Assembly: GCA_964529745.1 (NCBI GenBank)
Contig: CAZGZR010000005.1
Location: 79 to 64,078, forward strand
Direction of reading: 5' to 3'
DNA length: 64,000 nucleotides
DNA from: an uncultured Candidatus Bathyarchaeia archaeon
GTDB taxonomy: Archaea > Thermoproteota > Bathyarchaeia > TCS64
The notes under the pieces were generated by a model, which was given only the letters and a program-made list of their open reading frames with translations, made no database searches and was not told the DNA's origin. The first letter of the stretch is position 1. The number at the start of each line of letters is the position of its first letter. Made by a program: the position numbers and the translations under genes. This document shows, one piece after another, positions 12,992-34,715 of this stretch.

Positions 12992-13905
12992 TATTACAAA
13001 ATATGTTTAATATCCAATTTTATATTCTATGACGGTCAATATAGACAAGCTCGGAGAGCTAATGATGTCAAGAGGCTGTTTTATAGTCTTCGAAGGAATT
13101 GATGGATCAGGTAAAACTGCTCAGTGTGAAATCCTCTCCGAGAAATTAAAGGACGAATATAACGTTCTTCAAACCAAAGAACCAACTGGATCTTTACCTA
13201 TTGGTAAATTAATACGTAAAGTATTACTTGAAGAAGAGGAATCCAAAGACATACCAGAAGAGTCATTAGCACTTTTATTTGCAGCTGATAGAATTTCTCA
13301 TTTAAAAAGAATAGTTCTTCCTGCTCTTAACAATGGATCAATTGTTATTTCCGATAGATATGTATATAGTTCATATGCTTATCAAACTAAAGGTATGAAT
13401 AAAGAAATGCCGCTAAATTGGATATATGATATAAATAAATATGCAATAGATCCTGATATTGTGATATTTTTAGATATACCTCCGGAATTAGGTCAAGAAA
13501 GATTATTTAAAGGTCAAAAAAGAGTTCAAGATCATACATATTTTGAAACACTTATACAGCAACAAAAAATTAGATCAGTTTATTATGAGGTTTTTAATTT
13601 TGATAAAAAAACAGTGGATTTATTAAATTTCAATAAAAAAAAGAAAAAGAATAAAAGAATAGAAATTAATAAAATAAAGAATACTACAATATTGCGGATA
13701 GATGGAACCTTATCTAAGAAAAAGATAGAAAATTCCATTTTTAAATACGTAAGTAATTATTTAAAAGAAAAAAATATTTCTAAAAACGATAATAAAGACT
13801 CTAAAAAACAACCTTTAACATTATTCTCGTAAGAAGTGGATTATTATAGATGTAATCAATATACAACTTTATACTTAATTTGCAATCTAAATGTCTTACC
13901 TTGAT
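12992..13905. other. AT-rich compositional island 1 (carries tmk)
   Basis: Abrupt switch from GC-rich host sequence to AT-rich sequence directly after the M24 stop codon. Composition returns to GC-rich near 13905. Boundaries judged by eye. Confidence 0.7.
13029..13832 (+). CDS. tmk: Thymidylate (dTMP) kinase with Lys-rich insertion and tail, foreign codon usage
   Basis: 267 aa. P-loop FEGIDGSGKT, TKEPT, DRY-type motif SDRYVYSSYAYQ and a LID-like GQKRVQD. AAA/ATT/TTA-dominated codons, unlike neighbouring genes. Confidence 0.85.
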   Translation: MTVNIDKLGELMMSRGCFIVFEGIDGSGKTAQCEILSEKLKDEYNVLQTKEPTGSLPIGKLIRKVLLEEEESKDIPEESLALLFAADRISHLKRIVLPALNNGSIVISDRYVYSSYAYQTKGMNKEMPLNWIYDINKYAIDPDIVIFLDIPPELGQERLFKGQKRVQDHTYFETLIQQQKIRSVYYEVFNFDKKTVDLLNFNKKKKKNKRIEINKIKNTTILRIDGTLSKKKIENSIFKYVSNYLKEKNISKNDNKDSKKQPLTLFS

Positions 13906-14098
13906 AACAGTGTTTAGCTTCAGGCTCTCGGCAGTACTCTTTCCATCGACCAGGTTGAGAAGATCTTTTTGAGAGAGCGTCGGGTCTCTTGAAGGAGCTG
14001 AATGTTGAGCCGGAGGAGAGGGACGCGAAGGCGGAGTCCCTGACCTGGTTCATCGAGGAGTAGCCGTCATACCTCGATCTTTATATCCTTCACGATGT

Positions 14099-14968
14099 TT
14101 GGTTGTTGGATCTGGTTTGCAGGTTGAAGCCTACGCGTTGGTGACTGCCTTCAGCTTCGGGCTCTCGGCGGTGCTCGTCCGTAAAGGGCTGAGCGAGTCC
14201 ACGGCCGTCACCGCCACCCTCGTCATCAGCGGGGTCCAGGTGGTCGTCCTAGGCTTCCTGCTCCTGCTGTCGCCGCCGAGCCTCAGCTGGGCGGCGGTGG
14301 GCTACTTCGTGGTCGCGGGGCTGTTGGCCGCTACGTTTGGCAGGACCCTGAACTACATGAGCATCGACAGGCTGGGGGTGCCCATAAGCACGTCTCTGAG
14401 CGGCACCAACCCGTTGTTCACCATAGTGTTCGCGTCCCTCCTCATAGGCGAGGCCGTGGAGGCGAGCACCGTGGCGGGCACGGCGTTGGTGGTCGCCGGG
14501 ATCGCGTTGATAAGCGGCTGGGGCGGAGAGAACAGCGTCAGGAAAGGCGACCTCGTCATCCCGTTGGCCGCCGCGAGCCTCTACGCCCTCTCTAGCATCT
14601 TGAGGAAGACGGCCCTCACCATGCTGCCGGAACCCGTGCTGGGCGCTGTCGTCGGGGCGCTGGCGAGCCTCTTCACCTTCCCCGTCGTGCTGAGGCTGAT
14701 GAACAGAGTGGGAGACCTCAGGCTCACGAGGGGCTCCCTGCCCTACTTCGCTGCGGCCGGCGTCTCCAACAGCGTCGCCTGGGTAAGCATGTACCTGGCC
14801 ACCCAGAGCGGCTCGGTGTCGGTGGTCTCCGCCATAATCGGGGCCAACCCCTTGTTCGGGCTGGTCCTCAGCGCCATCTTCCTCAGGGGCGTCGAGAGGA
14901 TAACCCCCAGGACCATAGCCGGCTGCCTCGTCATCGTAGCCGGGATAACCGTGATTACGCTGCTCTAG
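14099..14968 (+). CDS. EamA/DMT-superfamily transporter
   Basis: 289 aa with about 10 hydrophobic segments in a two-fold EamA-like arrangement. TTG start, so the N-terminus is uncertain. Confidence 0.75.
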   Translation: MVVGSGLQVEAYALVTAFSFGLSAVLVRKGLSESTAVTATLVISGVQVVVLGFLLLLSPPSLSWAAVGYFVVAGLLAATFGRTLNYMSIDRLGVPISTSLSGTNPLFTIVFASLLIGEAVEASTVAGTALVVAGIALISGWGGENSVRKGDLVIPLAAASLYALSSILRKTALTMLPEPVLGAVVGALASLFTFPVVLRLMNRVGDLRLTRGSLPYFAAAGVSNSVAWVSMYLATQSGSVSVVSAIIGANPLFGLVLSAIFLRGVERITPRTIAGCLVIVAGITVITLL

Positions 14969-15345
14969 GCTCCCATCTTCTTAGCCCTGTCGAGGGCCTC
15001 CATGAGCTTCATCAGGGTGTCCGTGAGCTCGACCATCGCCGCGGGGTCGTCCTCCTCGTCCAACCTCTTCTGGACCTCGTCGATCTTCTTACGCAGGGAC
15101 TCTGCGAGCCTCTCCCTGTGGGCCTCGGACTGAACATCGGCGTCGCCTTTGACGTACCTCACCGGCCTGTTACACATGGGGCAGATGACGTCGCCGTTGC
15201 TCAGCTGGAAAAGGGGTGTCCCGCAGTCCGGGCACGTGTCGCTGAGCATGCGGGCGCCTTGCCGCAGTAGCTCGCCCATCTTCTTCATGCTACCTTCAGA
15301 CAATCCGACACCAGAAACGGATACACGCGCCTGCTTAAGAATCAT
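14965..15345 (-). CDS. Zinc-ribbon protein of the UPF0148 / autoantigen-p27-like family
   Basis: CPDCGTPLF...CPMCN zinc ribbon followed by an acidic helical tail. The likely true start is the internal Met at 15288 (MKKMGELLRQGARML). Confidence 0.65.
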   Translation of the reverse strand: MILKQARVSVSGVGLSEGSMKKMGELLRQGARMLSDTCPDCGTPLFQLSNGDVICPMCNRPVRYVKGDADVQSEAHRERLAESLRKKIDEVQKRLDEEDDPAAMVELTDTLMKLMEALDRAKKMGA

Positions 15346-15672
15346 TCAGGTCGGGAGATCGAAGAAACCGTCCACGCCGGGCTCGAGGCGCTCCACCTTC
15401 ACGACGGCGCCCAAGTTGATGGGCCCGTAGACGTGGGGATACAGCTCGCCGCCGCCCCCGTCCTCCTCTACAACCCGCGAATCCAGACTTTCCGGGTCGA
15501 TGTGGAGGAGAACCAGGCCCCGCCGCCCCCTGTAGACCATGTTAGCCACCCTGATCACCTGATGCGGGTACGAGCAGTGTATGAAGCCCTGATCCCTCAG
15601 CGACGCCGTCCTGTATATCCCGTCCACCTGGGCCCTCGCCCACTCCTCGCCGTGGGCTATGTGAAGCAACAT
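15346..15672 (-). CDS. DUF952-family protein
   Basis: 108 aa from ATG 15672 (MLLHIAHGEEW...GFIHCSYPHQV...LLHID...ELYPHVYGPI), matching DUF952 length and pattern. The longer 202-aa ORF in the track looks like an upstream over-extension. Confidence 0.7.
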   Translation of the reverse strand: MLLHIAHGEEWARAQVDGIYRTASLRDQGFIHCSYPHQVIRVANMVYRGRRGLVLLHIDPESLDSRVVEEDGGGGELYPHVYGPINLGAVVKVERLEPGVDGFFDLPT

Positions 15673-16010
15673 GGAGGAACCTCGGCTCGACGCGTTAATA
15701 ATGATATACCCTCCACCGAGACAGGGGCCGGCTTCATTGATGGACCAAGAAGCAACGCCCAAGAGCCGGTTACTTATAAAACCGTTCGGAGAACAAAACA
15801 CCGTGCCTCTGGTTGACAGGTTCAAAAGGGTGACCGGCCTCATAGTAGGCGCCACCCTGTGAGGCGTCGTGGGCAACGCCTTCGGCAACCTAGGGCTAGG
15901 CGTCGTCATCGGCGCGTCCCTGGGGCTCCTGCTTGGGCAGTGGTGCCGCATCAAAGCAGAAACCTGGTAAGAGCCCAGTTTTTAAGGCAAGCAACCGTAG
16001 TTGAGAATAC

Positions 16011-16733
16011 ATGATCCAGCTAGAGGGAAGAAACACGGTGCAGGAGGCGCTGAAGGCGGGGACCGTAACCCTCATCCGAGTGGAGAAGGACAAGCAGAGC
16101 GACCCCAAGATACAGGAAATCCTCGGCTCCGCCGCCCGAATGAAGGTGCCCGTAGAGTTCGTCACGAGGCAGAAGCTGGACAATGTGAGCGAGACAGGGC
16201 GCCACCAGGGGATCATGGCCGTGGCCGAGCCCAGTCCCGCATGGAGCCTGGAGAGGGTGCTCAAGGAGACCGGGAGGGAAGCCTGCATACTACTGTTGGA
16301 CCGGGTGCAGGATCCCCACAACCTGGGAGCCATACTCAGGACCTCGGACGCCGCCGGGGTGGACGGGGTGGTCGTACCCAAACGGGGAAGCGCCGACCTC
16401 GGGACCACCGTCCACAGAGTATCCATGGGGGGCAGCCTCCACGTCCCGGTATGGAGACAGAGCCTCTACACAGCCATCAAGACCCTGAAAGACGACGGCT
16501 TCAAGGTAATCGGATTAGACGCCTCCGCGGATACACCCTACTGGGGGATCGACCTGACTGGAGCCGTAGCCTTCGTCTTGGGCGGCGAGGACAGGGGCAT
16601 AAACCCCACCCTCCTCGACAAGTGCGACACCCTAGTCAAGATACCCATGATGGGCAAGATACCTTCGCTTAACGTGAGCGTCGCCACGGCCATAGTCATC
16701 TACGAGAGGCTGAGGCAACAAGAAAACGGGTGA
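16011..16733 (+). CDS. SpoU/TrmH-family RNA 2'-O-ribose methyltransferase (RlmB-like)
   Basis: 240 aa. Motifs LLLDRVQDPHNLGAILRTSDAAGVD, LGGEDRGI and IPMMGKIPSLNVSVATAIVIYE. Confidence 0.85.
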   Translation: MIQLEGRNTVQEALKAGTVTLIRVEKDKQSDPKIQEILGSAARMKVPVEFVTRQKLDNVSETGRHQGIMAVAEPSPAWSLERVLKETGREACILLLDRVQDPHNLGAILRTSDAAGVDGVVVPKRGSADLGTTVHRVSMGGSLHVPVWRQSLYTAIKTLKDDGFKVIGLDASADTPYWGIDLTGAVAFVLGGEDRGINPTLLDKCDTLVKIPMMGKIPSLNVSVATAIVIYERLRQQENG

Positions 16734-16743
16734 GAAAAGCGGG

Positions 16744-17058
16744 TCAGCGTCTATTATAGGCGTTGCTTATGATAATGACGCCGATGGCTATGATGAACAG
16801 CGGCCAGAGCGTGTCCCACCCAATCCACCCGAACGTGTCCTCCAGCAGCGTCGAGAGACCCATTAGGATCAGAAACGCGCCTATGAGCAGCGGCCACGTC
16901 ATCCTGTTCCTGCCGCCGAAGCATTCGTCGTCGTAGTCCCAGTCCCGCCTTCTGGTCCTGTACGCCGGGGGGCGGAGGCTGGCCCCGCAGTTCTTGCAGA
17001 CCTCCGCGTCTTCATCGTTCTCGGTTCCGCACTTGGTGCAATATACCAAAACCTTCAC
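16744..17058 (-). CDS. Zinc-ribbon membrane protein
   Basis: 104 aa. N-terminal CTKCGTEN...CKNCG ribbon followed by two hydrophobic helices. Confidence 0.6.
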   Translation of the reverse strand: MKVLVYCTKCGTENDEDAEVCKNCGASLRPPAYRTRRRDWDYDDECFGGRNRMTWPLLIGAFLILMGLSTLLEDTFGWIGWDTLWPLFIIAIGVIIISNAYNRR

Positions 17059-17106
17059 CTAGGACGCTGATCGTCGTCGTCTTATAGAAACGTTACTCAC
17101 GGAACG

Positions 17107-18336
17107 TCATCTGTACCCGTCTGGACAGGGCTCAGCGCACCGGCTGCACGCCCTTACATGCTCCTCTTGGGACACCCTGATGCGAGCCGCCACCCAGAAC
17201 AGAACCGAAGCCATCAGATAAGCCTCAACGAGGAAGCTGACGCCCATCTCCATCAGGGAAGCAGTCAACATGAACGCGCCGAAGACCAACGAGACGTTCA
17301 GCACCAGGTGAAACAGCGGGCTGCCCATGTCGATGAAATGCTGGACGAGCCCCAGGGCGACGAGCAGCGCGCCGGCGTAGAAGACGGTCACGGGGTCGCC
17401 GACGCTGAACCCGCCGAAGAAGCAAAGGAATCCGCCCACGATGGCCGAGGCGGCTCCCAGGGCGAGCCCCGTACACCCGGCGCACAGCGCCCTACCGTTC
17501 ACCCTTAAAACGTGCCCCCTGAACTCCGGGCAGTCCGGGTGGTGGCCAACGAGCCTAGGTTTAAGATTAGCGTCGTGCCCCAAACCATTCAGCCTCCATG
17601 GAGCCGCTGCCGCCACGAGCCCCGCCGTGCAAACGAGGATGAAAAGGCTGCCTGTCACGAGATTCTGGTCTGCAAAGGTTATCATGGGCGTGCTCGGGCT
17701 GAACGCGAGTAGCCCGAGGAATACGAGTAGAACCAACCCAATGGAAACATACAGTATCTGAGTCCTCCGCCCAGCCAGGCCGTGCCTGACGAATCCGCGG
17801 TAAAGCTCTCCCGGGTCCGGGACGAGGAAGGGCGTTCTCTCTTTGTACCTTCGGTACTCGTCGCCGAACCTCTCCTCCAAGTCCGGCTCCTCCCTCAGCT
17901 TGACTATCGCCACGTTCAGCAGCAGGACCAGGGGGGTGATGGACAGGGCCATCCCCGGCGACTGGAGCAGCACCCCCATCGCCAACGGGAGCGTAGAGTA
18001 GCCCAGCACCATAGGGTTCCTGGTATAGGCGTATACCCCGGACGTGACCAGCCTGCTGGTCTTGGCGTCCTCGACGGCCTCGCCCCATGGCAGGCCCCCT
18101 CCATGACGATAGAGGAGACGCGTAGACCTCAAACCGACGCCGAGGCCGAAGATGAAAACGGATACACCCATATAGAGATTCCAAGGAAAAGGGGGGTAGC
18201 TCTGTAGACTGAGGACGGCGTCCACCTGTCTACCGGCGACGTATGTGATGACGGGCATGGCGACGAATATCAACAGATACAGCGCCAGCTGTCCACCCTT
18301 CACGGATACCGTCCGGGTCTGTCCGTCGTAATCCAT
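17107..18336 (-). CDS. Membrane methyltransferase (ICMT/PEMT-like) fused to a Cys-rich polytopic membrane domain
   Basis: 409 aa. The N-terminal half has GVYAYTRNPMVLGY ... EEPDLEERFGDEYRRYKERTPFLVP (ICMT-family signature). The C-terminal half has HHPDCPEF...LCAGCTG and CSRCAEPCP motifs within transmembrane segments (DUF2085-like, tentative). Confidence 0.6.
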   Translation of the reverse strand: MDYDGQTRTVSVKGGQLALYLLIFVAMPVITYVAGRQVDAVLSLQSYPPFPWNLYMGVSVFIFGLGVGLRSTRLLYRHGGGLPWGEAVEDAKTSRLVTSGVYAYTRNPMVLGYSTLPLAMGVLLQSPGMALSITPLVLLLNVAIVKLREEPDLEERFGDEYRRYKERTPFLVPDPGELYRGFVRHGLAGRRTQILYVSIGLVLLVFLGLLAFSPSTPMITFADQNLVTGSLFILVCTAGLVAAAAPWRLNGLGHDANLKPRLVGHHPDCPEFRGHVLRVNGRALCAGCTGLALGAASAIVGGFLCFFGGFSVGDPVTVFYAGALLVALGLVQHFIDMGSPLFHLVLNVSLVFGAFMLTASLMEMGVSFLVEAYLMASVLFWVAARIRVSQEEHVRACSRCAEPCPDGYR

Positions 18337-18346
18337 AGTCGTCGCC

Positions 18347-19771
18347 TCAGAGTAGGCTCTTCAGCTGCATCAACAGCGCCTGCTTTGATAGGTAGGCGTA
18401 GGTGCGTCGGGTGAAGGAGTTTCTGCTGCCTATCCCCCGGAACCTGCGGTCCCAGCTGCCGAAGAAGTCCTCGTAGCACCGGTAGAGCTCCTCTTGAACC
18501 TCCTCACGCGTCAGGTGCATGGTGGGCATGACGGCGTGGACCATGTCGTAGTGGGCCCAGTTGTCGTCCATTATCCAGCCGCCCTGCCTCGCCTCATCGT
18601 ATACCTCAGTGCCGGGGAACGGCGTCAACACGAAGAACGAGGCTATGTCGGGGTCGAGCCTGTCCGCGTACCGTCGCAATGCCTCGATGGACTCGTGGCT
18701 GTCCCTCCTCTCGCCGATGATGAATGTCCCCTGGATGAACATGTCGTTGTCCCGTAACAGCTTCACGGCCTCCGTTGCGCGTGTCTCGTCTATGCCTCTG
18801 CGCCTGAAGGAGCTGAGGGTCTCCCGGCTCGGGCTGTCGAAGCCCACGAGCGCCCAGACGGCCCCCGCGTCCCGCATGGACGCCACCGTCTCGGGGTTCT
18901 CCACCACATCGTCTGCCCTTACCTGGCAGAACCACTCGATCTCGTCCCCCAGGCCCCGATCCACGAGGCCCCTGCATATCTCCCGGGTCTCCTCGCCCAA
19001 GCCGAGGTTGTCGTCGCTGAACCAGAAGAAGCGGCTGCCGTACTCGCTGTAGAGGTGCTCGAACTCGTCCACCACCCTCCCGGGGGACTTGCGGCGGTGA
19101 CAACTGCGCCAGAACCTCCACTGGCTGCAGTAGCTGCAGTCGTGGCGGCAGCCCCTGGAGCCCTCGACTATGGCGAAGGGCTTCCCCTGGTCGGCCATGA
19201 GGGAGAAGTAGTAGCCCGCCATGTGCTCCTCAACCTTGTGGTAGGCGGGGTAGGGGAGGGTGTCGAGGTCGGAGATGAGGGGCCTATCCGGCTGGTGATG
19301 GATCTCCTCACCTTTTCTAAGGGAGACCCCCGGGACGGCGGCTGTCCGCCCGTCGTTGACGGCGCGTAGCAGCTCCGTGAAAGTCTCCTCCCCCTCCCCC
19401 CGCACGACGTAGTCTATGAACGGGTACGTCCTGAGGGTCTCGTCGGCTAGGGCCGTGAAGTGCTGGCCACCGAGCACCGTGACGGTCTCCGGGTTCAGCT
19501 TCTTAGCCGCCTCGGCGGCCCTTACGGCGTAGAACGCGTTGGCCGTGGCCATCCCCGAGGGGGCGACGACGTCAGGCTCAGCCTCTCCCATCCTCGCCTC
19601 AAGGCCGTCCCAGTCCAGCCCCTCGCTCTGGCTGTCCACGACCTCCACCTCCACCCAGGGGAGACGCTCCTCGACGTATGCGGCGAGGCAGAGTAGGCCG
19701 AAGGGCGGCGGTATGTACTGCCCCATGATGAACCAGAAGTCCTTGGGAGGCTCGACGAGAAGCACCTTCAC
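18347..19771 (-). CDS. B12-binding-domain radical SAM protein (class B)
   Basis: 474 aa. N-terminal cobalamin-binding-like domain and a radical SAM cluster motif CRHDCSYCSQ. Confidence 0.85.
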   Translation of the reverse strand: MKVLLVEPPKDFWFIMGQYIPPPFGLLCLAAYVEERLPWVEVEVVDSQSEGLDWDGLEARMGEAEPDVVAPSGMATANAFYAVRAAEAAKKLNPETVTVLGGQHFTALADETLRTYPFIDYVVRGEGEETFTELLRAVNDGRTAAVPGVSLRKGEEIHHQPDRPLISDLDTLPYPAYHKVEEHMAGYYFSLMADQGKPFAIVEGSRGCRHDCSYCSQWRFWRSCHRRKSPGRVVDEFEHLYSEYGSRFFWFSDDNLGLGEETREICRGLVDRGLGDEIEWFCQVRADDVVENPETVASMRDAGAVWALVGFDSPSRETLSSFRRRGIDETRATEAVKLLRDNDMFIQGTFIIGERRDSHESIEALRRYADRLDPDIASFFVLTPFPGTEVYDEARQGGWIMDDNWAHYDMVHAVMPTMHLTREEVQEELYRCYEDFFGSWDRRFRGIGSRNSFTRRTYAYLSKQALLMQLKSLL

Positions 19772-19928
19772 GGCGGATCACGATTGCGTGGATGGGTCAA
19801 AGCTAGTGGTTAAACATATTTACTGGACCTTAAAAACAGTGGACACCGTAGACGGCAAACACAGGATTCTAAACACTTGAACCCAGACACGGGAAATCTT
19901 CATTAAGAGATGAAACGGAGACGATACC

Positions 19929-20417
19929 ATGCCGGAAAACGAGAAAATGCCGGGCTGGGTCTACGAGGACAGGAGGCCCGCCACGGATCGGGAGTACTTC
20001 ATGAACATGACCAGGTGTATCTTCCAGGCCGGGCTCAACTGGCAGATGATCGCCGACAAGTGGCCCAACTTCAGGGAGGCGTTCGACGGGTTCGACATCG
20101 ACAAGGTGGCCGCCTACGGGCCCGACGACGTGGCCAGGCTGCGCGGAGACAAGGGCATCATAAGGAACAGGCAGAAGATAGAGGCAACCATACTCAACGC
20201 CGAGGAGTTCAAGCGCATCGCGGCGGAGCACGGCAACTTCCAGAAGTGGCTGGACGGAATGGACAAGGGCAGCAACTACGACTACGTGGTGAAGAGGCTC
20301 AAGAGCAGGTTCAGACGGGTGGGCACCGGCACCGCCCACATCTTCCTGTGGAGCGTTGGCGAGCCCATACGGTACGACCCGAGCGTCCACGGCAGACGGC
20401 CCACGAAGATCGCTTAA
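19929..20417 (+). CDS. tag: DNA-3-methyladenine glycosylase I family protein
   Basis: 162 aa. Tag-like core FQAGLNWQMIADKWPNFREAFDGFDIDKVA...IIRNRQKIEATILNA. Confidence 0.7.
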   Translation: MPENEKMPGWVYEDRRPATDREYFMNMTRCIFQAGLNWQMIADKWPNFREAFDGFDIDKVAAYGPDDVARLRGDKGIIRNRQKIEATILNAEEFKRIAAEHGNFQKWLDGMDKGSNYDYVVKRLKSRFRRVGTGTAHIFLWSVGEPIRYDPSVHGRRPTKIA

Positions 20418-20682
20418 CCCCCATATTTTTCCCAAAGCTAATGGACGTGACGCCGCTGGTTCAAACGGATCAGGGACCGGTATCACGCCTATAGTCTATG
20501 CCTAGATAGGGCGCATCCGCAAACCCCATTTAAGCGCCAGCGCATGGGTCACTGCCCGGGGACGGTTATATCTTTTAGAAGGGGAAGGAGAAAAACCGCC
20601 CCCGTGCGCCTCCCAATAAAAATCAGTAATGTGGAGAACCCAACCTTCTCTGATACAGCTTCTTCCGTGAGTGAAAAAGGGG

Positions 20683-21834
20683 TTATTGCGGCTTGGTGAA
20701 GATGCGCCGAGCTTCACCCATGAACTTCCTGATGGGAAGCTCCTGCGGGCACTGTTCCTCACAGACGCCGCAGGAGACGCACTGGTCGGCATGGGCCTCG
20801 GGGCCTATCTTCTCCCAGTACCTCTCCTCGACCTCGTCGCTCTGGCCGCTCATGTAGTACTCGTTGTACATGCCCAGTATCCCCGGGATATCGACGCCCT
20901 GGGGGCAAGGCATACAGTACCTGCACGCGGTGCACCCGACGAACCCCAGCTTGTTATAGGCTTCCTTAGCCTTCTCTACTATCTTCAGCTCGTCGGCCGT
21001 GAGTGAACCTGCGCCGCTTCGTCCCGCGTACTCCACGTTCTCCTCGACGTGCCTCATCTCGCTCATGCCGCTGAGGACGACGCTCACCTCGGGGTGGTTC
21101 CAAACCCACTGGAGGGCCCACTCCGCGGGAGTCCTCTTGGTCTCGGCCTTCGCCCACACCGCCTGGACGTCCCTGGGCGGCGTCACGGCGAGCTTCCCGC
21201 CCTTGATGGGCTCCATGACTACGACGGCGAGCCCCTTCTCGGCGGCGTACCGTAGCCCCTCGAGGCCCGCCTGGTACTCGGTGTCCATGTAGTTGAACTG
21301 TATCTGGCAGAAGGTCCAGTCGTGGCTGTCCACGATCTCCTTGAAGAGCCCCACGTCGTCGTGGAAGCTGAAGCCCAGGTGCCCTATCTTGCCTTCCTGT
21401 ATCTTCTCGTCGGCCCAGCCGAACACGTCGAGGTCCCTCACTGTGGGCCATCTCTCGCGCCTCAACCCGTGGAGCAGGTAGAAGTCTATCCTGTCGGTCT
21501 GGAGCTTTATGAGCTGCTCGTCGAGGTACCTGTCGAAGTCGCCGCGCTCTTCTATGAGCCAAGTAGGCATCTTCGTGGCGAGCCTGACCTTCTCGTGGTA
21601 CCCGTCCTTGAGGGCCTTACCGACTAGCCTCTCGGACTCGCCCTGATGGTAGGGGTAAGCCGTGTCCACGTAGTTGACGCCGTGGTCTATGGCGTACCTG
21701 ATCATCTCTACGGCCCTGGGCTCATCGATCTTGCTGGTATCGCCCCCTATCACTGGGAGCCTCATGGCTCCGAACCCCAGCGCCGAGACCTTCCAGTCTA
21801 GTCCTCCGAATCTACGGTACTTCACACCCAGCAC
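20683..21834 (-). CDS. Aldo/keto reductase with C-terminal 4Fe-4S ferredoxin-type domain
   Basis: 383 aa. AKR N-terminus (LGFGAMRLP...NYVDTAYPY) and a C-terminal CxxCxxC-type region (CTACRYCMPCP ... CVSCGVCEEQCP). Confidence 0.85.
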   Translation of the reverse strand: MLGVKYRRFGGLDWKVSALGFGAMRLPVIGGDTSKIDEPRAVEMIRYAIDHGVNYVDTAYPYHQGESERLVGKALKDGYHEKVRLATKMPTWLIEERGDFDRYLDEQLIKLQTDRIDFYLLHGLRRERWPTVRDLDVFGWADEKIQEGKIGHLGFSFHDDVGLFKEIVDSHDWTFCQIQFNYMDTEYQAGLEGLRYAAEKGLAVVVMEPIKGGKLAVTPPRDVQAVWAKAETKRTPAEWALQWVWNHPEVSVVLSGMSEMRHVEENVEYAGRSGAGSLTADELKIVEKAKEAYNKLGFVGCTACRYCMPCPQGVDIPGILGMYNEYYMSGQSDEVEERYWEKIGPEAHADQCVSCGVCEEQCPQELPIRKFMGEARRIFTKPQ

Positions 21835-24129: not shown

Positions 24130-24501
24130 ATGGCGCAGGGAGACTCGAAACTCAAGGGCGTAGTCAGCCAGGTGGGGCTGGAGCGGGACGAGGATGAGTT
24201 CCGCAGCTTCAACCTCACGCTGGGGATTAAGGTGAAGACGGGCAAGAAGCTTAACCTGAGGGAGGGAGAGCGCCTCATAAAGCAGATGAGGAAGGATTTC
24301 CTGGGCAAGAACATCGAGTTCGAGGCCACCGCCATCCCGTGCCCTGTCTGCGGCAAGACGTTTAACACGGAGGCGGGCATGAAGCAGCACCACAGGTTGA
24401 TGCACAAGAACGGCGTAGACGAAACCAAGGCGAAGAAGAAGGCTTCCTCCAAGAAGCGAAAGAAGAAGACTAGTAAGAAGTCGTCTAAAAAGAAGTCCTA
24501 A
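24130..24501 (+). CDS. C2H2 zinc-finger protein with poly-Lys/Ser tail
   Basis: 123 aa. Single C2H2 finger CPVCGKTFNTEAGMKQHHRLMH and C-terminal KAKKKASSKKRKKKTSKKSSKKKS. Confidence 0.65.
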   Translation: MAQGDSKLKGVVSQVGLERDEDEFRSFNLTLGIKVKTGKKLNLREGERLIKQMRKDFLGKNIEFEATAIPCPVCGKTFNTEAGMKQHHRLMHKNGVDETKAKKKASSKKRKKKTSKKSSKKKS

Positions 24502-24830
24502 CCGCTCTCGTCGAGGCTGTTCTTGAACTCGATGAGCGCCTTTACCTTGGGGTTGCCTGTGTTAAGCTGGTAGACCACGGTGACTTTACCTACCTTGCAG
24601 CCCGTGACCAGACCCCTTTCGAGCAGCTCGGGCATGACGGGGCTGACGGAGCCGGGGTTCTTGTCTATTCTCCTGGCTATCTCCCTGAGGTTCATCCACT
24701 GGTTGGGGTTGTCTATGAGCATGTCTAGAACCAGCATCATTATGGATGGCCCCAGGAGGTCGTTTATGGAGGGCTTCACAGGTTTAACATGTGTCTCGGG
24801 AATATAAACGATGACCCCAATATCAAACAT
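24498..24830 (-). CDS. Winged-helix transcriptional regulator
   Basis: 110 aa. MNLREIARRIDKNPGSVSPVMPELLERGLV helix-turn-helix followed by a beta wing. Convergent with the C2H2 gene, with a 4-nt overlap. Confidence 0.6.
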   Translation of the reverse strand: MFDIGVIVYIPETHVKPVKPSINDLLGPSIMMLVLDMLIDNPNQWMNLREIARRIDKNPGSVSPVMPELLERGLVTGCKVGKVTVVYQLNTGNPKVKALIEFKNSLDESG

Positions 24831-29804: not shown

Positions 29805-30215
29805 TATATTTTAACTGTTTTTTCTTTTTAACCATCTTTAAATGAATTGTTGTAATTCTTTGTATATTTCTAATATCGATTCCTTTTTCCCACTGAACTC
29901 TAATTTTTTCCTTGTTGTCGTGATGTTTACTATCCCTTTCTTCGATACGATTCCCTTCTCGTTGAAAACCATGTCTACGATGTCGCTGATGTTTTCGGAA
30001 ATGATATTATCTTTTTTGAAGATCAAGCCTTTTTGCCTGTGCCATATGACACGTCGATCGGTTATCATGAAGTAGTATTTTCCTCCTTGATATTCCACTG
30101 GTTCCGGGCTTGAGTACCTTACACTTTCTCCTGGCATAAGAAAATCTTCGAGTGGCATACATATTCAAATTTTTATGTAAATATAAAACTTTATCGAGTG
30201 CTGGATCATAAAAAT
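29805..30215. other. AT-rich compositional island 2 (carries a PH-like gene)
   Basis: About 410 bp of AT-rich sequence between two GC-rich genes, starting right after the stop at 29804 and ending before the GYD gene. Boundaries judged by eye. Confidence 0.65.
29838..30158 (-). CDS. Bacterial-type PH-domain (DUF304/bPH-like) small protein
   Basis: 106 aa. GESVRYSS...YYFMITDRRVIWHRQKGLIFKKDNIISENISDIVDM pattern typical of bPH domains. AT-rich codons. Confidence 0.55.
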   Translation of the reverse strand: MPLEDFLMPGESVRYSSPEPVEYQGGKYYFMITDRRVIWHRQKGLIFKKDNIISENISDIVDMVFNEKGIVSKKGIVNITTTRKKLEFSGKKESILEIYKELQQFI

Positions 30216-31332: not shown

Positions 31333-32160
31333 GTGAACATCATGACCCAGGAAAGCGATCAGACCGAGCAGCACTTCTTCGATTTCGCCGCCGAGGCGGG
31401 CCTGACGAAGCACTTCGGCGGCCTAGAGGCGACGGAGGAACTCGTCGATCTATGCGGAATAGGGGAGGACAGCTATGTCCTGGACGTCGGCTGCGGCGTC
31501 GGGCAGACGCCATGCTACCTCGCCAAGAAGCATGGCTGCAGGGTGGTCGGCGTTGACATCAACGAGGGGATGATCGAGAGATCCCGGGAGACGGCGGAGA
31601 GGGAGGGAGTAACGGAAAAGACGGAGTTCAGGGTCGCTGACGCTCAGAACCTTCCCTTCATGGACGGAACCTTCGACGCCGTCGTCACGGAGTCCGTGAC
31701 CGTCTTCCCGGAGGACAAGCAGAAGGCCGTCGGGGAGTACACGCGGGTGACGAAGACCGGCGGCCACGTCGGGCTCAACGAGGCGACTTGGCTGAAGACG
31801 CCGCCTCCACCCGAGATAATCGCGTGGGCGTCCCAGGATCTTGGTGCGTGCGTGAAGCCTCTAACCTCTGATGAGTGGGCTGGTCTACTGGAGGAAGCCG
31901 GACTGACAGATATAGTCGTGAAAGTCCGTGAGGTCAGGCCACGTAGAGAGGCGAGGGGGCTTGTCCGCAGGTACGGCTACCTGGGGATGCTGCGAAGCCT
32001 CTTCAGAGCCGCTTCTCTGTATCTGAGGAGTCCAGCCTACAGGAGGTTCGTGAAGGAAGTGCGGAAGGAAGGCATCACCCCCGACAACCTTGAAGAGTAT
32101 CTGGGATACGGCCTGTTCGTCGGGAGAAAGGAGCAGCGCGATGCCCTAGGCGAGATATGA
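31333..32160 (+). CDS. Class I SAM-dependent methyltransferase
   Basis: 275 aa with GTG start. Motif I VLDVGCGVGQT and acidic motif II region. Confidence 0.8.
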   Translation: MNIMTQESDQTEQHFFDFAAEAGLTKHFGGLEATEELVDLCGIGEDSYVLDVGCGVGQTPCYLAKKHGCRVVGVDINEGMIERSRETAEREGVTEKTEFRVADAQNLPFMDGTFDAVVTESVTVFPEDKQKAVGEYTRVTKTGGHVGLNEATWLKTPPPPEIIAWASQDLGACVKPLTSDEWAGLLEEAGLTDIVVKVREVRPRREARGLVRRYGYLGMLRSLFRAASLYLRSPAYRRFVKEVRKEGITPDNLEEYLGYGLFVGRKEQRDALGEI

Positions 32161-32232
32161 ACCCACAACCATCGACTCGCTGATAGGGCCCGGCTCTTCC
32201 ATATGCTCTCGTGCTCTTGGCCGCCAAATCGG

Positions 32233-32276
32233 GTGGGAATAATATTATAAGTGGGAACCATATATAAAAGTGGGAA
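32233..32276 (+). promoter_or_regulatory. Three direct GTGGGAA repeats in the vapBC promoter/start region
   Basis: GTGGGAA at 32233-32239, 32251-32257 and 32270-32276, spaced 18 and 19 bp with AT-rich spacers. The last copy overlaps the vapB start. Confidence 0.35.
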
Positions 32277-32524
32277 TGGCCGAGATAGTGAAGGTGGACG
32301 CCAAAGGCCGCGTGCTCATACCCAAGAAGCTGAGAACCAAGGCGGAGATCACTGAAGGCGGCTACGTCAAGGTGGAGGCAGACGAGAACAGGATCGTCAT
32401 CAAGCCCTTGGAGCCCGTCGCCGAGAAGTACTACGGCGCCTTCGAGGTGGACTCGTGGCCGGACGATCTCGACGCGTATATCACGGAGGCGCTGAGGAAG
32501 GAGTGGACCCGGAAGCGTACCTAG
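32270..32524 (+). CDS. vapB: AbrB/SpoVT-family antitoxin (VapB)
   Basis: 84 aa. VKVDAKGRVLIPKKLRTKAEITEGGYV swapped-hairpin motif. ATG at 32276 is an alternative start. Confidence 0.8.
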   Translation: MGMAEIVKVDAKGRVLIPKKLRTKAEITEGGYVKVEADENRIVIKPLEPVAEKYYGAFEVDSWPDDLDAYITEALRKEWTRKRT

Positions 32525-32922
32525 ACGTAAACGTGTTCGTCTACTGGCTCGGGGGCCACCCCGCATATGGCGCACAGGCTCACCGGTGGATAAAAGCGGT
32601 GCAGAACAGCGTCGGGGCGAGGTACACCACCTCGACCCTCTCGCTCTACCAGGTCCTCGTGGTGATGGCCGGCCTCACAGGCACGACCTTGAGCGACGCC
32701 GGGTTCGTGGAAAAGGTTCACACGGCCATCACGGGCCTGCCGGGGCTCCAGATGGTGCCCCTGACATCGAGTCACTTCTCAAGAGCCTTGGATCTGATGC
32801 AGATATACGGCGTTGACTACGAGGATGCGCTCCACCTGGCCGTGGCCATGGACGAGGGTCTAAACAAGATCGTGTCCAACGACAAAGACTTCGATAAGAC
32901 ACCGTTGAACCGTGTGTTTTAG
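32503..32922 (+). CDS. vapC: PIN-domain toxin (VapC family)
   Basis: About 139 aa from GTG 32503 (VDPEAYLDVNVFVYWL...). C-terminal SNDKDFD acidic motif. Overlaps the vapB 3' end. The track ORF starts at 32455. Confidence 0.75.
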   Translation: MDPEAYLDVNVFVYWLGGHPAYGAQAHRWIKAVQNSVGARYTTSTLSLYQVLVVMAGLTGTTLSDAGFVEKVHTAITGLPGLQMVPLTSSHFSRALDLMQIYGVDYEDALHLAVAMDEGLNKIVSNDKDFDKTPLNRVF

Positions 32923-32923
32923 G

Positions 32924-32968
32924 TGGAGCCTCGAGCGGGATTTGAACCCGCGGCCTACAACTTACGAG
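32924..32968 (-). repeat. Partial copy (3' 45 nt) of tRNA-Thr(CGU); distal att-like direct repeat
   Basis: TGGAGCCTCGAGCGGGATTTGAACCCGCGGCCTACAaCTTACGAG matches 34640-34684 at 44 of 45 positions. It corresponds to tRNA positions 32-76 and starts 2 nt after the vapC stop. Confidence 0.85.
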
Positions 32969-33055
32969 ATTAACATAATAGTCACTAAATCACAAGAACG
33001 AGTTTTTAATTATGTAATTTAATTTACTGTAAAAATTTTTTTAAGGTAATAAATC

Positions 33056-34219
33056 ATGTTTTTAAAGACTAACTTGAGTTATTTTACTAAATTAAAAAAT
33101 GAACAAATGTTGTGCTATCAAAACATTATAAATGATATTGATATTTATAGAACTCGCACTACAAATCCATGTCATCATGAATCGCTAAGAATATTTCGCC
33201 GTATAGTTGAGAATAATCTTGATGACATAACAGACTTAGAGCCTCCCTTATTCGAAAGTTTACAACTTGTATCGTATGCACATTTTAATATTAAAGAATT
33301 AGAGCCAAATTTAACTGATTTATCTTTAAGATTTGGTCCTTCAAAGATTCGTTTCAGATACGTTTACAATTTTATCGATAAAATTTGTGATGAAATAGTT
33401 GATCGTTCTAACATTGGAATACACCCCCATCCTTATTTAGGTATATTTGGTGGAGAACGATATAGAAACTCTTATCCAATGAATTTTATTTGTTGTAGAT
33501 TAACAGATTATTATAGATTCTGGCATTTAGGTTTATTAGGGCATGAGTTAGGGCATTCTATTTTAAAGTATTATTTTGAGCCAGATCCCGTATTTCATCA
33601 AACACCATTTGATGAACAGGGTCAACCTATCATTGAACAAATTGTTGAAAATTGGGAGATTGAAATAATTGCTGACATGATTGGTACGTTAACTGTCGGT
33701 CCTACTTTGTTGTTTTCTCATGCTATGATGCCAACTTTTTGGGTTTTTCACCCTAGACGTGAAGCTGAGTATTTAAGAACATTCCATACGCATCCACCAT
33801 GCGAATTTCGTTTTTATATACATGATAAAATACTTGACGACCTTGACTTGTCAAATGAATTTCCACTGCCTGATTTGTTTGGATTTTTCAGAAACATTGA
33901 TTTCTCAGAAAGTGAGGATTATAGAATATTATTTAATCAAAGACTAGATAATATTCGTAATTTTCAGGATATCATCAATGAGAAATTTGAACGAATTTAT
34001 CCAATATTAAAAGAAAATATTCGTTATTTTAATGTTGATGATTGGCAAAATAGTAAAGAAATTGCACAGATTCTCAATGAAAACGGTGATATTTCTTTAG
34101 ACCAATATTCACCTATTCAAATTCTTAACGGAATAATATTAATTAAGCCTAATGAATTGACTTCTGTACTTGAAGAAGAGATTATGGATAGAATCTTACC
34201 AATATTTACTTGTTTATAA
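33056..34219 (+). CDS. HEXXH zinc-metallopeptidase-like protein (ImmA/IrrE-like core, tentative)
   Basis: 387 aa. WHLGLLGHELGHSIL (HEXXH) followed about 45 aa later by ENWEIEIIADMIG (an E-x-x-A-D-x-x-G type third-ligand region). Flanking N- and C-terminal regions not recognised. AT-rich codons. Confidence 0.55.
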   Translation: MFLKTNLSYFTKLKNEQMLCYQNIINDIDIYRTRTTNPCHHESLRIFRRIVENNLDDITDLEPPLFESLQLVSYAHFNIKELEPNLTDLSLRFGPSKIRFRYVYNFIDKICDEIVDRSNIGIHPHPYLGIFGGERYRNSYPMNFICCRLTDYYRFWHLGLLGHELGHSILKYYFEPDPVFHQTPFDEQGQPIIEQIVENWEIEIIADMIGTLTVGPTLLFSHAMMPTFWVFHPRREAEYLRTFHTHPPCEFRFYIHDKILDDLDLSNEFPLPDLFGFFRNIDFSESEDYRILFNQRLDNIRNFQDIINEKFERIYPILKENIRYFNVDDWQNSKEIAQILNENGDISLDQYSPIQILNGIILIKPNELTSVLEEEIMDRILPIFTCL

Positions 34220-34278
34220 ATATCACACACACACAACTTTTATTAAGTTGAAACGCGTTACAACTTAATTGATACTAA

Positions 34279-34605
34279 ATGAAAAAAAAGGCTAGTGAGA
34301 TCCCTGTAAGTGTTAGCTCCGAGACTGAGAAGATGGTTAAATTAATAAAAGAACAGTTTTCAGAGATTTTTCTAGCGACAACCTATGCAACTAAGCAAGA
34401 TAGGAAACGTGCTCTTTATAATTGCTTAGAAGAAGGGGTAGATTATACCGTAAAAGAATTACAAAATGAATTTATGCGTAGATATTCCATCCCAATCAGT
34501 CGAGTAGCTATAAACACATACGTAAATGAATTAGAAGCGGAGGGTAAAGTTGTTTTCACTAGGCAAGGCCTTGGTGGATTAAAAATAATTAGACTCTCCG
34601 AATAA
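34279..34605 (+). CDS. Small winged-helix DNA-binding protein
   Basis: 108 aa. YTVKELQNEFMRRYSIPISRVAINTYVNELEAEGKVVF looks like an HTH plus wing. 59 bp downstream of the HEXXH gene on the same strand. Confidence 0.5.
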   Translation: MKKKASEIPVSVSSETEKMVKLIKEQFSEIFLATTYATKQDRKRALYNCLEEGVDYTVKELQNEFMRRYSIPISRVAINTYVNELEAEGKVVFTRQGLGGLKIIRLSE

Positions 34606-34639
34606 CTTTTTCCCTATTTACCTATTATCATAATATAAA

Positions 34640-34715
34640 TGGAGCCTCGAGCGGGATTTGAACCCGCGGCCTACAGCTTACGAGGCTGCCGCTCTGGCCA
34701 CTGAGCTACCGAGGC
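34640..34715 (-). tRNA. tRNA-Thr (anticodon CGU), CCA encoded
   Basis: Manual fold: acceptor GCCUCGG/UCGAGGC, anticodon stem GCAGC/GCUGU, loop CUCGUAA, T-arm GCGGG-UUCAAAU-CCCGC, 3' UCCA. 76 nt. Confidence 0.9.

Follow-up and report, generated by a model that had tools for sequence, protein, structure and literature searches.

How does foreign DNA come to lie at the 3′ end of an archaeal tRNA gene, framed by what look like the two attachment (att) sites of an integrase reaction, when it encodes no integrase? The question is raised by a contig of an uncultured Candidatus Bathyarchaeia archaeon (assembly GCA_964529745.1, contig CAZGZR010000005.1), of which we analyzed a stretch of 64,000 nucleotides, hereafter the window. 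A first-pass annotation had proposed that an AT-rich cassette of about 1.67 kb was integrated at a tRNA-Thr(CGU) gene between direct repeats of 45 bp, and had offered two origins for it: a heavily reduced remnant of a larger element, or a non-autonomous cassette mobilized in trans. We find that the cassette, hereafter the insert, is indeed an integrase-less insertion, and that its two genes, encoding a protein with an HEXXH motif and one that resembles winged helix-turn-helix (wHTH) proteins, recur as a pair elsewhere. With about even confidence, we read the insert as a non-autonomous att-flanked mini-island, comparable to the cis-mobilizable elements (CIMEs) of bacteria and carrying a protease-repressor-like module of a selfish or regulatory kind, which either integrated in trans or stayed behind after a helper element had excised.

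The repeats and the tRNA gene lie as follows.

34640-34715, minus strand: intact tRNA-Thr(CGU) (ARAGORN call tRNA-Thr(cgt); Rfam RF00005 score 70.4 bits).

34640-34684, minus strand: proximal, attL-like repeat copy, the 3′ 45 nt of tRNA-Thr(CGU) (45-mer match, 0 mismatches).

32924-32968, minus strand: distal, attR-like copy of tRNA-Thr(CGU) positions 32-76 (44/45 identical), at the ancestral chromosomal position adjoining vapC.

ARAGORN, Rfam and the 45-mer search agree on the tRNA and on its 45-nt copy, which confirms the first description of both. Two matches to the 45-mer were found in the window, one without a mismatch (34640-34684) and one with a single mismatch (32924-32968); allowing ≤3 mismatches added no further match, and shuffled sequences gave 0. 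The distal copy is also overlapped by a weak match to the tRNA/tmRNA clan. In terms of the tRNA, the repeat starts with the first base of the anticodon loop and finishes with the terminal A of CCA, and the identity breaks off sharply at both boundaries. The sole mismatch, at repeat position 37 (raw tRNA position 40), is a C-to-T change on the 3′ strand of the anticodon stem, and would keep a G-U pair there. This geometry supports a pair of att sites, because the repeat matches both the strand-exchange position of the SSV1 integrase, which borders the anticodon loop (PMC8371274), and the median of 45 bp among crenarchaeal att sites, which measure 29-69 bp (PMC6563490).

The host is a Bathyarchaeota archaeon, since its RpoB falls in a cluster with members named as such. 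Relatives of the organism retain the site without the insert. A scan of metagenome contigs with the 45-mer yielded 19 loci, each with one copy and all with G at the variable position. In at least five related metagenomic contigs (L016, L023, L025, L027 and L030) the site is empty: the vapC stop is followed by 1-2 nt and then by a single, intact tRNA-Thr(CGU), which has the same sequence as in the window. When compared by BLASTN, the parts of the window that end at 32968 and begin at 34640 flank the single 45-mer of these loci with 83-92% nucleotide identity over kilobases, and the surplus of the window over the empty site is 1716 bases, that is, the 1671 bp of the insert plus one repeat copy. 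The repeat on the vapC side keeps the ancestral junction, as in the empty-site loci, and the copy in the functional tRNA adjoins cassette DNA. Because the flanks collapse onto one 45-mer in the relatives, the segment is a real Campbell-type insertion, and its arrangement is the product of reciprocal recombination between a chromosomal attB and an attP that contained the 3′ 45 nt of the tRNA. An ancient tRNA pseudogene, which the first-pass annotation had named as the alternative, fails as an explanation, since the relatives do not have the two tRNA-derived copies.

The neighbors on the vapC side are two genes that lie outside the insert.

32270-32524, plus strand: vapB (AbrB/MazE-type by Pfam; host composition).

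32455-32922, plus strand: vapC (PIN by Pfam; host composition), ancestral neighbor of the tRNA 3′ end.

The distal repeat had been placed 2 nt after the vapC stop; it does directly follow vapC, and the spacing is refined to a single nucleotide (G32923) between the stop codon (32920-32922) and the repeat. The vapBC genes stand beside the uninterrupted tRNA in all five empty-site loci named above and are absent from L013, L018 and L021. Where they are absent, a methyltransferase gene ends 1-2 nt from the tRNA; the methyltransferase ORF of the window has a different, longer C-terminus. The end of a vapC-like gene abuts tRNA-Thr(CGU) in a lower-GC clade as well. The 3′ 45 nt of tRNA-Thr(CGU) are identical in two clades (loci L012-L030) that differ in the tRNA's 5′ half and in genomic GC (~0.6 vs 0.45-0.5), and an attP of such a sequence would therefore fit a broad host range. 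We also considered vapBC as an earlier insertion marked by a third, degenerate tRNA-derived copy at 32145-32164, and rejected it: the score of this copy is reached by ~5% of windows and is not significant, and vapC beside tRNA-Thr(CGU) is widespread in relatives. An exact look-up of the neighboring CoA-transferase, aimed at within-species polymorphism, found the protein not on record.

The insert itself is laid out compactly.

32969-33055, plus strand: left non-coding end, 87 bp; the alignment of the window with the copy at locus L001 is conserved from ATTTACTGTAAAA onward.

33023-33033: palindrome TTTACTGTAAA within the left non-coding end, with an AT-rich promoter-like stretch conserved with L001.

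33056-34219, plus strand: gene of the 387-aa HEXXH protein, whose family is rare and unmatched in Pfam and which, by motif, is probably an M48-like zinc metallopeptidase.

34244-34267, no strand: intergenic palindrome TAAGTTGAAACGCGTTACAACTTA, overlapping the TATA-like TTATTAA; putative promoter/operator of the wHTH gene.

34279-34605, plus strand: gene of the 108-aa winged-helix-like DNA-binding protein, in every case directly downstream of the HEXXH gene.

34606-34639, plus strand: right non-coding end, 34 bp, directly next to the tRNA gene's CCA end.

The interval between the repeats (32969-34639, 1671 bp) has a GC content of 0.302, against 0.567 and 0.592 in the 5-kb flanks and 0.581 in the window, and falls below all 312 same-size windows sampled along the contig; the strong AT-richness noted at first is thus borne out and a host-like composition is refuted. 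Only two ORFs of ≥60 aa are present (33056-34219 and 34279-34605), as had been listed, with a coding share of 89% and non-coding stretches of 87, 59 and 34 bp. The GC content at third codon positions (GC3) is 0.21-0.29 in both genes vs 0.76-0.90 in the neighboring host genes. Compared with the L001 copy, the nonsynonymous divergence (dN) is ~0.27 and the synonymous divergence (dS) is saturated. Both genes are intact and under purifying selection, and from dN with saturated dS, together with the GC3 contrast, it follows that both are functional and recently foreign. The 44/45 identity of the repeats, the GC of 0.30 and the low GC3 likewise point to an insertion that is recent and foreign, and the 89% coding share, the intact ORFs and the purifying selection indicate that it is not decaying.

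No trace of an integrase was found in this interval. Neither protein showed an integrase match in Pfam, PHROGs, PADLOC or NCBIfam and, because the non-coding parts measure 87, 59 and 34 bp, there is no room for an integrase fragment or for a split SSV-type integrase. The claim that the insert holds no integrase, split or intact, therefore stands on the ORF list, the domain scans and the gap lengths alike, and the idea of an ordinary element with a decayed integrase fragment fails, as the insert has neither the space nor an ORF for one. Outside the insert, none of the ten ORFs scanned at 27-43 kb of the window has an integrase domain, their domains being metabolic or unknown, and no integrase was present among the called genes within 10 kb on each side of the L001 copy. 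We also considered that the insert came from a virus or a plasmid, and dropped this idea: IMG/VR gave no match to the 45-mer or to either protein, and PLSDB and INPHARED gave none to the HEXXH protein. The search for a helper element at tRNA-Thr(CGU) in relatives ended at ordinary metabolic genes in the 3′ flanks of L022 and L024. An insertion sequence or transposon was rejected as well, since there is no transposase domain (Pfam, PHROGs, PADLOC, NCBIfam) and no terminal inverted repeat (none of ≥14 nt at the insert), and the duplication consists of 45 nt of tRNA; neither conserved nor inverted terminal sequences of a transposon-like kind were seen.

What does the insert carry? The HEXXH protein has no match in Pfam, PHROGs, PADLOC or NCBIfam. 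Among 5.8 billion proteins it has one close homolog, with 63% identity, in the Bathyarchaeota metagenome-assembled genome QDN_4, and a full HMMER pass over 1.84 billion cluster representatives gave only 19 relatives. Ten residues are invariant in the family (H163, E164, H167, E203, D207, G215, P216, H246, P247 and R252), giving the string HExxH...E..D..GP...HPxxxR. The family profile aligned with the M48 peptidase 3c37 across GG..Y, HExxH, E..AD..G and tHPxxxR (E 0.02-0.04), and Pfam M48 was matched below its cut-off by 3/14 members, with a best E-value of 0.069. Judging by these motifs only, the HEXXH protein is a probable M48-like zinc peptidase. Its AlphaFold model is confident and mostly helical (pLDDT, the per-residue confidence score, 86; pTM, the predicted template modeling score, 0.89), and Foldseek returned no neighbor of the full model in PDB or BFVD. 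A model of the core only was poorer and likewise had no Foldseek neighbor, and structural annotation was abandoned, Foldseek being empty with both models. A type III toxin-antitoxin system, suggested by a weak Pfam match to ToxN, was dismissed because the match lies far below threshold and the insert has no repeat array.

The partner protein is less distinctive in domain searches. Its winged-helix matches are sub-threshold, with MCM4_WHD below the Pfam cut-off in 5/7 members, and its C-terminal segment is invariant (PISRV.IN.Y.N.LEAE.K). The palindrome TAAGTTGAAACGCGTTACAACTTA before its gene is unique in the window, where shuffles lead one to expect 0; it is conserved in all seven loci aligned and is visible in L031 and L032, too. 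The wHTH protein probably binds this palindrome before its own gene.

The pair is found in other places. In 9/9 other loci with downstream sequence (those listed are L001, L004-L007, L011, L031 and L032), the HEXXH gene is accompanied by both the palindrome and the wHTH gene. No integrase was present in the available flanks of these loci, and host-like genes start ~50-600 bp from the pair wherever flanks exist. In L001, on a 187-kb contig, the pair abuts tRNA-Ser(GGA) at a distance of 59 bp, and in L004 a tRNA-Ser(UGA) lies 600 bp downstream. Counting the window, a tRNA thus lies ≤600 bp downstream of the pair, in the same orientation, in three loci and with three different identities (Thr-CGU, Ser-GGA and Ser-UGA); by our own estimate, such adjacency in 3 of ~7 informative loci is far above the ~1% expected by chance. 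From the sequences of these loci, the pair behaves as a discrete unit that stands alone in different places, often at tRNA 3′ ends.

The ends of the other copies are less clear than those in the window. L004 shows an 11-nt match to the tRNA 3′ end, which is only suggestive, and its left end is missing; L032 has a weak flanking repeat of 20 nt with 85% identity. In L005 the pair lies between 99-nt, 87%-identical copies (236-336 and 2216-2316) of the 3′ terminus of a host ORF of 62 aa, which itself is found intact downstream of the cassette; this geometry misfits a simple att duplication, and the right end of L006, from another sample, has the same right-hand neighbor as L005. A tRNA fragment to the left of the L032 cassette, tRNA-like by eye, was called neither by Infernal nor by relaxed ARAGORN, and partial copies of tRNA-Ser, sought at the far ends of the L001 and L004 cassettes, reached only shuffle-level scores; both candidates were discarded.

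Several loci show features of their own. In L007 (37-1184, a Logan contig) the HEXXH gene is split into ORFs of 201 aa and 163 aa and the wHTH gene is intact, so that this copy may be a pseudogene or carry a sequencing frameshift. In L008 (6001-8657; also L009 and L010) a distant 505-aa HEXXH relative (P0022) is followed by ORFs of 166, 51 and 145 aa with no Pfam match in place of the wHTH gene, and the wider HEXXH family therefore has other partners. On the other side of tRNA-Ser(GGA) in L001, the QDN_4 contig carries a defense-type cluster (13816-21143) with AbiEii, a VapB antitoxin, DUF7662/DUF7669 and the type I restriction-modification proteins HsdM/HsdS.

How, then, might the insert have arrived? 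In the mini-island reading, a two-gene module of 1671 bp would have been acquired horizontally, and an attP-like sequence of 45 bp would have undergone Campbell-type recombination with tRNA-Thr(CGU) in its 3′ part, which reaches from the anticodon loop to CCA. An intact tRNA would thereby be regenerated on the attL side, and the 45-nt fragment displaced to the attR side beside vapC. We infer that a tyrosine integrase acted on the attP-like 45-mer in trans, in which case it would have been supplied by another element; alternatively, a helper integrated in tandem may later have excised via the middle att copy and left the module, an accretion model known for bacterial CIMEs (PMC5704250, PMC7563491). 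The module would be non-autonomous, because it encodes no recombinase, and would move again only with such a helper.

Each half of this picture has known counterparts. In the tyrosine-integrase elements at archaeal tRNA genes (pNOB8-type class II and the thaumarchaeal cryptic elements), as in the insert, the repeats derive from the tRNA 3′ part, the 45 bp equaling the crenarchaeal median (PMC6563490), the tRNA is restored intact, and the DNA is foreign in composition and includes a small wHTH gene; the insert shares with such elements both the tRNA-3′-derived repeats with an intact tRNA and the empty site in relatives. Unlike them, it has no integrase of its own, and it is reduced to 1.67 kb and two genes, whereas the smallest cryptic integrated element described, in Thaumarchaeota, has 2.6 kb and four genes including the integrase (e.g. 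NitUzo-E2, 2.6 kb; PMC6563490). The CIMEs of Firmicutes (PMC5704250, PMC7563491) are att-flanked and without recombination or transfer genes, just as the insert is, and can in principle be excised or co-mobilized by the integrase of a related element at the same site. They differ in that no cognate autonomous element was found for the insert, that its host is an archaeon, that its cargo is unrelated and that its mobilization is putative. The insert can thus be described as a CIME-comparable tRNA-integrated islet in an archaeon, textbook in its att geometry and tRNA target, and distinguished by the absence of an integrase, its size and its orphan cargo family.

The cargo has counterparts of another kind. 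In ImmA-ImmR (of the integrative and conjugative element ICEBs1), IrrE-DdrO and BlaR1-BlaI, a gene for an HEXXH metalloprotease-like protein likewise lies beside a small (w)HTH gene, on mobile DNA near an attachment site, and we count the palindromic putative operator at the wHTH gene as a further likeness. However, neither protein of the insert matches the Pfam or NCBIfam models of those families, and the nearest sequence signal of the HEXXH protein is M48, vs M78 or M56 in the known protease/repressor pairs. With no match to M78 (COG2856) or Xre, the pair resembles the ImmA/IrrE (M78)-HTH module only in its gene-pair logic. By this analogy, the HEXXH/wHTH pair is most likely a self-regulating protease/repressor switch, in which the wHTH protein would bind the palindrome and regulate its own gene, and the zinc protease would, on a signal, inactivate the wHTH protein or another target. 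Protease activity and a repressor/operator function are what the motifs and the palindrome suggest; cleavage of the wHTH protein by the HEXXH protein is purely conjectural, taken over from the known pairs. The pair may also be addictive or confer immunity, being of a type carried by mobile elements, and such a function would explain why it persists as a lone pair.

Several observations weigh against the mini-island reading. No helper element, attP-bearing contig or integrase was found among the ten ORFs scanned at 27-43 kb, in the flanks of L022 and L024 or in IMG/VR. Clean tRNA-derived repeats are seen at the window copy only; a second copy in L001 did not rise above shuffle level, and L011 and L031 have neither a tRNA nor repeats. 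Different tRNAs would need different attP sequences, and a cargo carried by several integrative elements suits this better than a single satellite does. The assignment as a protease is weak, too, with matches below the Pfam cut-offs and no Foldseek neighbor despite a pLDDT of 86.

The main rival is a fixed remnant (‘gene capture’), which we consider possible, if somewhat unlikely. A larger integrase-encoding element would have entered tRNA-Thr(CGU), and internal deletions would have left two genes that are no longer mobile. It is well established that archaeal elements can lose their integrase and become fixed (She et al. 2001/2004, cited in PMC8371274), the searches for a helper came up empty, and the L001 module adjoins a tRNA but lacks a second att copy, as an older, decayed insertion would. 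Such deletions, however, must have ended within 87 bp and 34 bp of the att copies and spared both, and no pseudogene debris is present in an insert that is 89% coding, with both genes under purifying selection. The SSV-type (class I) form of gene capture is similar in that an element can become fixed once its integrase is lost, but there int(N) and int(C) fragments mark the ends, whereas the insert has 87 and 34 bp of non-coding DNA at its ends and no such fragments; no ORF or coding space lies between the att copies and the cargo genes. Moreover, exactly the same two genes are left in nine other loci with different contexts, which is unexpected for random decay. The two origins offered by the first-pass annotation are not fully separable, but the two-gene unit standing alone in nine other loci favors a discrete hitchhiking module over a random deletion remnant.

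Homologous recombination, self-mobility and a chimeric assembly are less likely. Had foreign circular or linear DNA carrying the 45-bp 3′ half of tRNA-Thr been recombined by the host machinery without an integrase, the same direct-repeat product would result. The 45-mer, identical in at least two divergent clades with different tRNA 5′ halves, would be a ready homology anchor, and the L005 module, between 99-nt, 87% copies of a host gene end, is atypical for integrase att sites. Yet homologous recombination would not set boundaries at the anticodon loop and CCA, a classical recombinase sublocation (PMC8371274), although the incoming DNA could inherit them from an earlier integrase event, and we regard this route as improbable.

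We hold it very improbable that the pair is itself a minimal mobile element, or an integration/excision module, that targets tRNA 3′ ends without a known recombinase, the HEXXH protein processing DNA instead of or besides acting as a protease. Slightly less probable still is the specific form in which tRNA 3′ ends are targeted by a new recombinase or integration factor, namely the HEXXH protein, perhaps aided by the wHTH protein in directionality or in targeting DNA. The module is indeed tRNA-proximal in three loci with three different tRNAs, an integrase never accompanies it, and the HEXXH fold has no structural neighbor; but its conserved motifs are those of a zinc peptidase and of no known DNA transferase, the copies share no terminal sequences, and several of them lie away from tRNAs.

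It is likewise very improbable that the assembler threaded into the chromosome a free 1.7-kb circle, or the DNA of an AT-rich organism that shares the 36-nt exact stretch of the repeat. The repeat does hold such a stretch, the compositional contrast is extreme, and an independent Logan unitig (SRR14802572, 1740 bp) identical to window 32930-34669 does not distinguish a circle from an integrated copy, because this k=31 unitig ends inside the repeat at both sides. In the contig, however, vapC is linked to the A-variant copy and the G-variant tRNA to the cassette, and an empty chromosome would offer no k-mers of more than ~40 for these junctions. It is also implausible that a circle of 1.7 kb would exist with no replication gene, and the L001 module sits in a 187-kb contig beside a tRNA with no repeat to mislead an assembler.

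The window contains other AT-rich patches. The island at 12992-14098 (GC ~0.29-0.31), flanked by the genes of a host M24-type peptidase and an EamA-type transporter, contains essentially nothing but a gene for thymidylate kinase (13029-13832; Pfam Thymidylate_kin, E 2e-45). At its right edge lies a 27-nt copy (13913-13939, 23/27) of the transporter 5′ region (14150-14176), scoring above all 500 shuffles, and after this copy follows the GC-rich tail of an otherwise missing ORF. The islet at 29805-30209 encodes a 106-aa protein (29838-30158, minus strand) with sub-threshold matches to bacterial PH domains; it lies between convergent DHDPS-family and GYD genes with no flanking repeat seen. L020, L021 and L022 lack the islet and have only a few to ~18 nt between these genes, and L028 has part of it. 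In the patch at 24130-24830 (GC ~0.44), the gene of a 123-aa lysine-rich protein with a C2H2-like CPVCGK...HHRLMH is convergent with that of a 110-aa winged-helix-like protein.

Our analysis presents a clean archaeal att-flanked insert without an integrase, for which the empty site is documented in relatives and whose size falls short of the smallest among the thaumarchaeal cryptic integrated elements described in PMC6563490. If such inserts are mobilized in trans, archaeal integrases would move more than their own elements, as bacterial integrative and conjugative elements do with CIMEs, and the detection of integrated elements would be affected, since searches based on integrases miss such inserts. 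The cargo defines a rare, uncharacterized set of a protease-like protein, a winged-helix protein and a conserved putative operator. In Bathyarchaeota the pair behaves as a selfish module would, and it is a candidate for a new switch in regulation, addiction or immunity.

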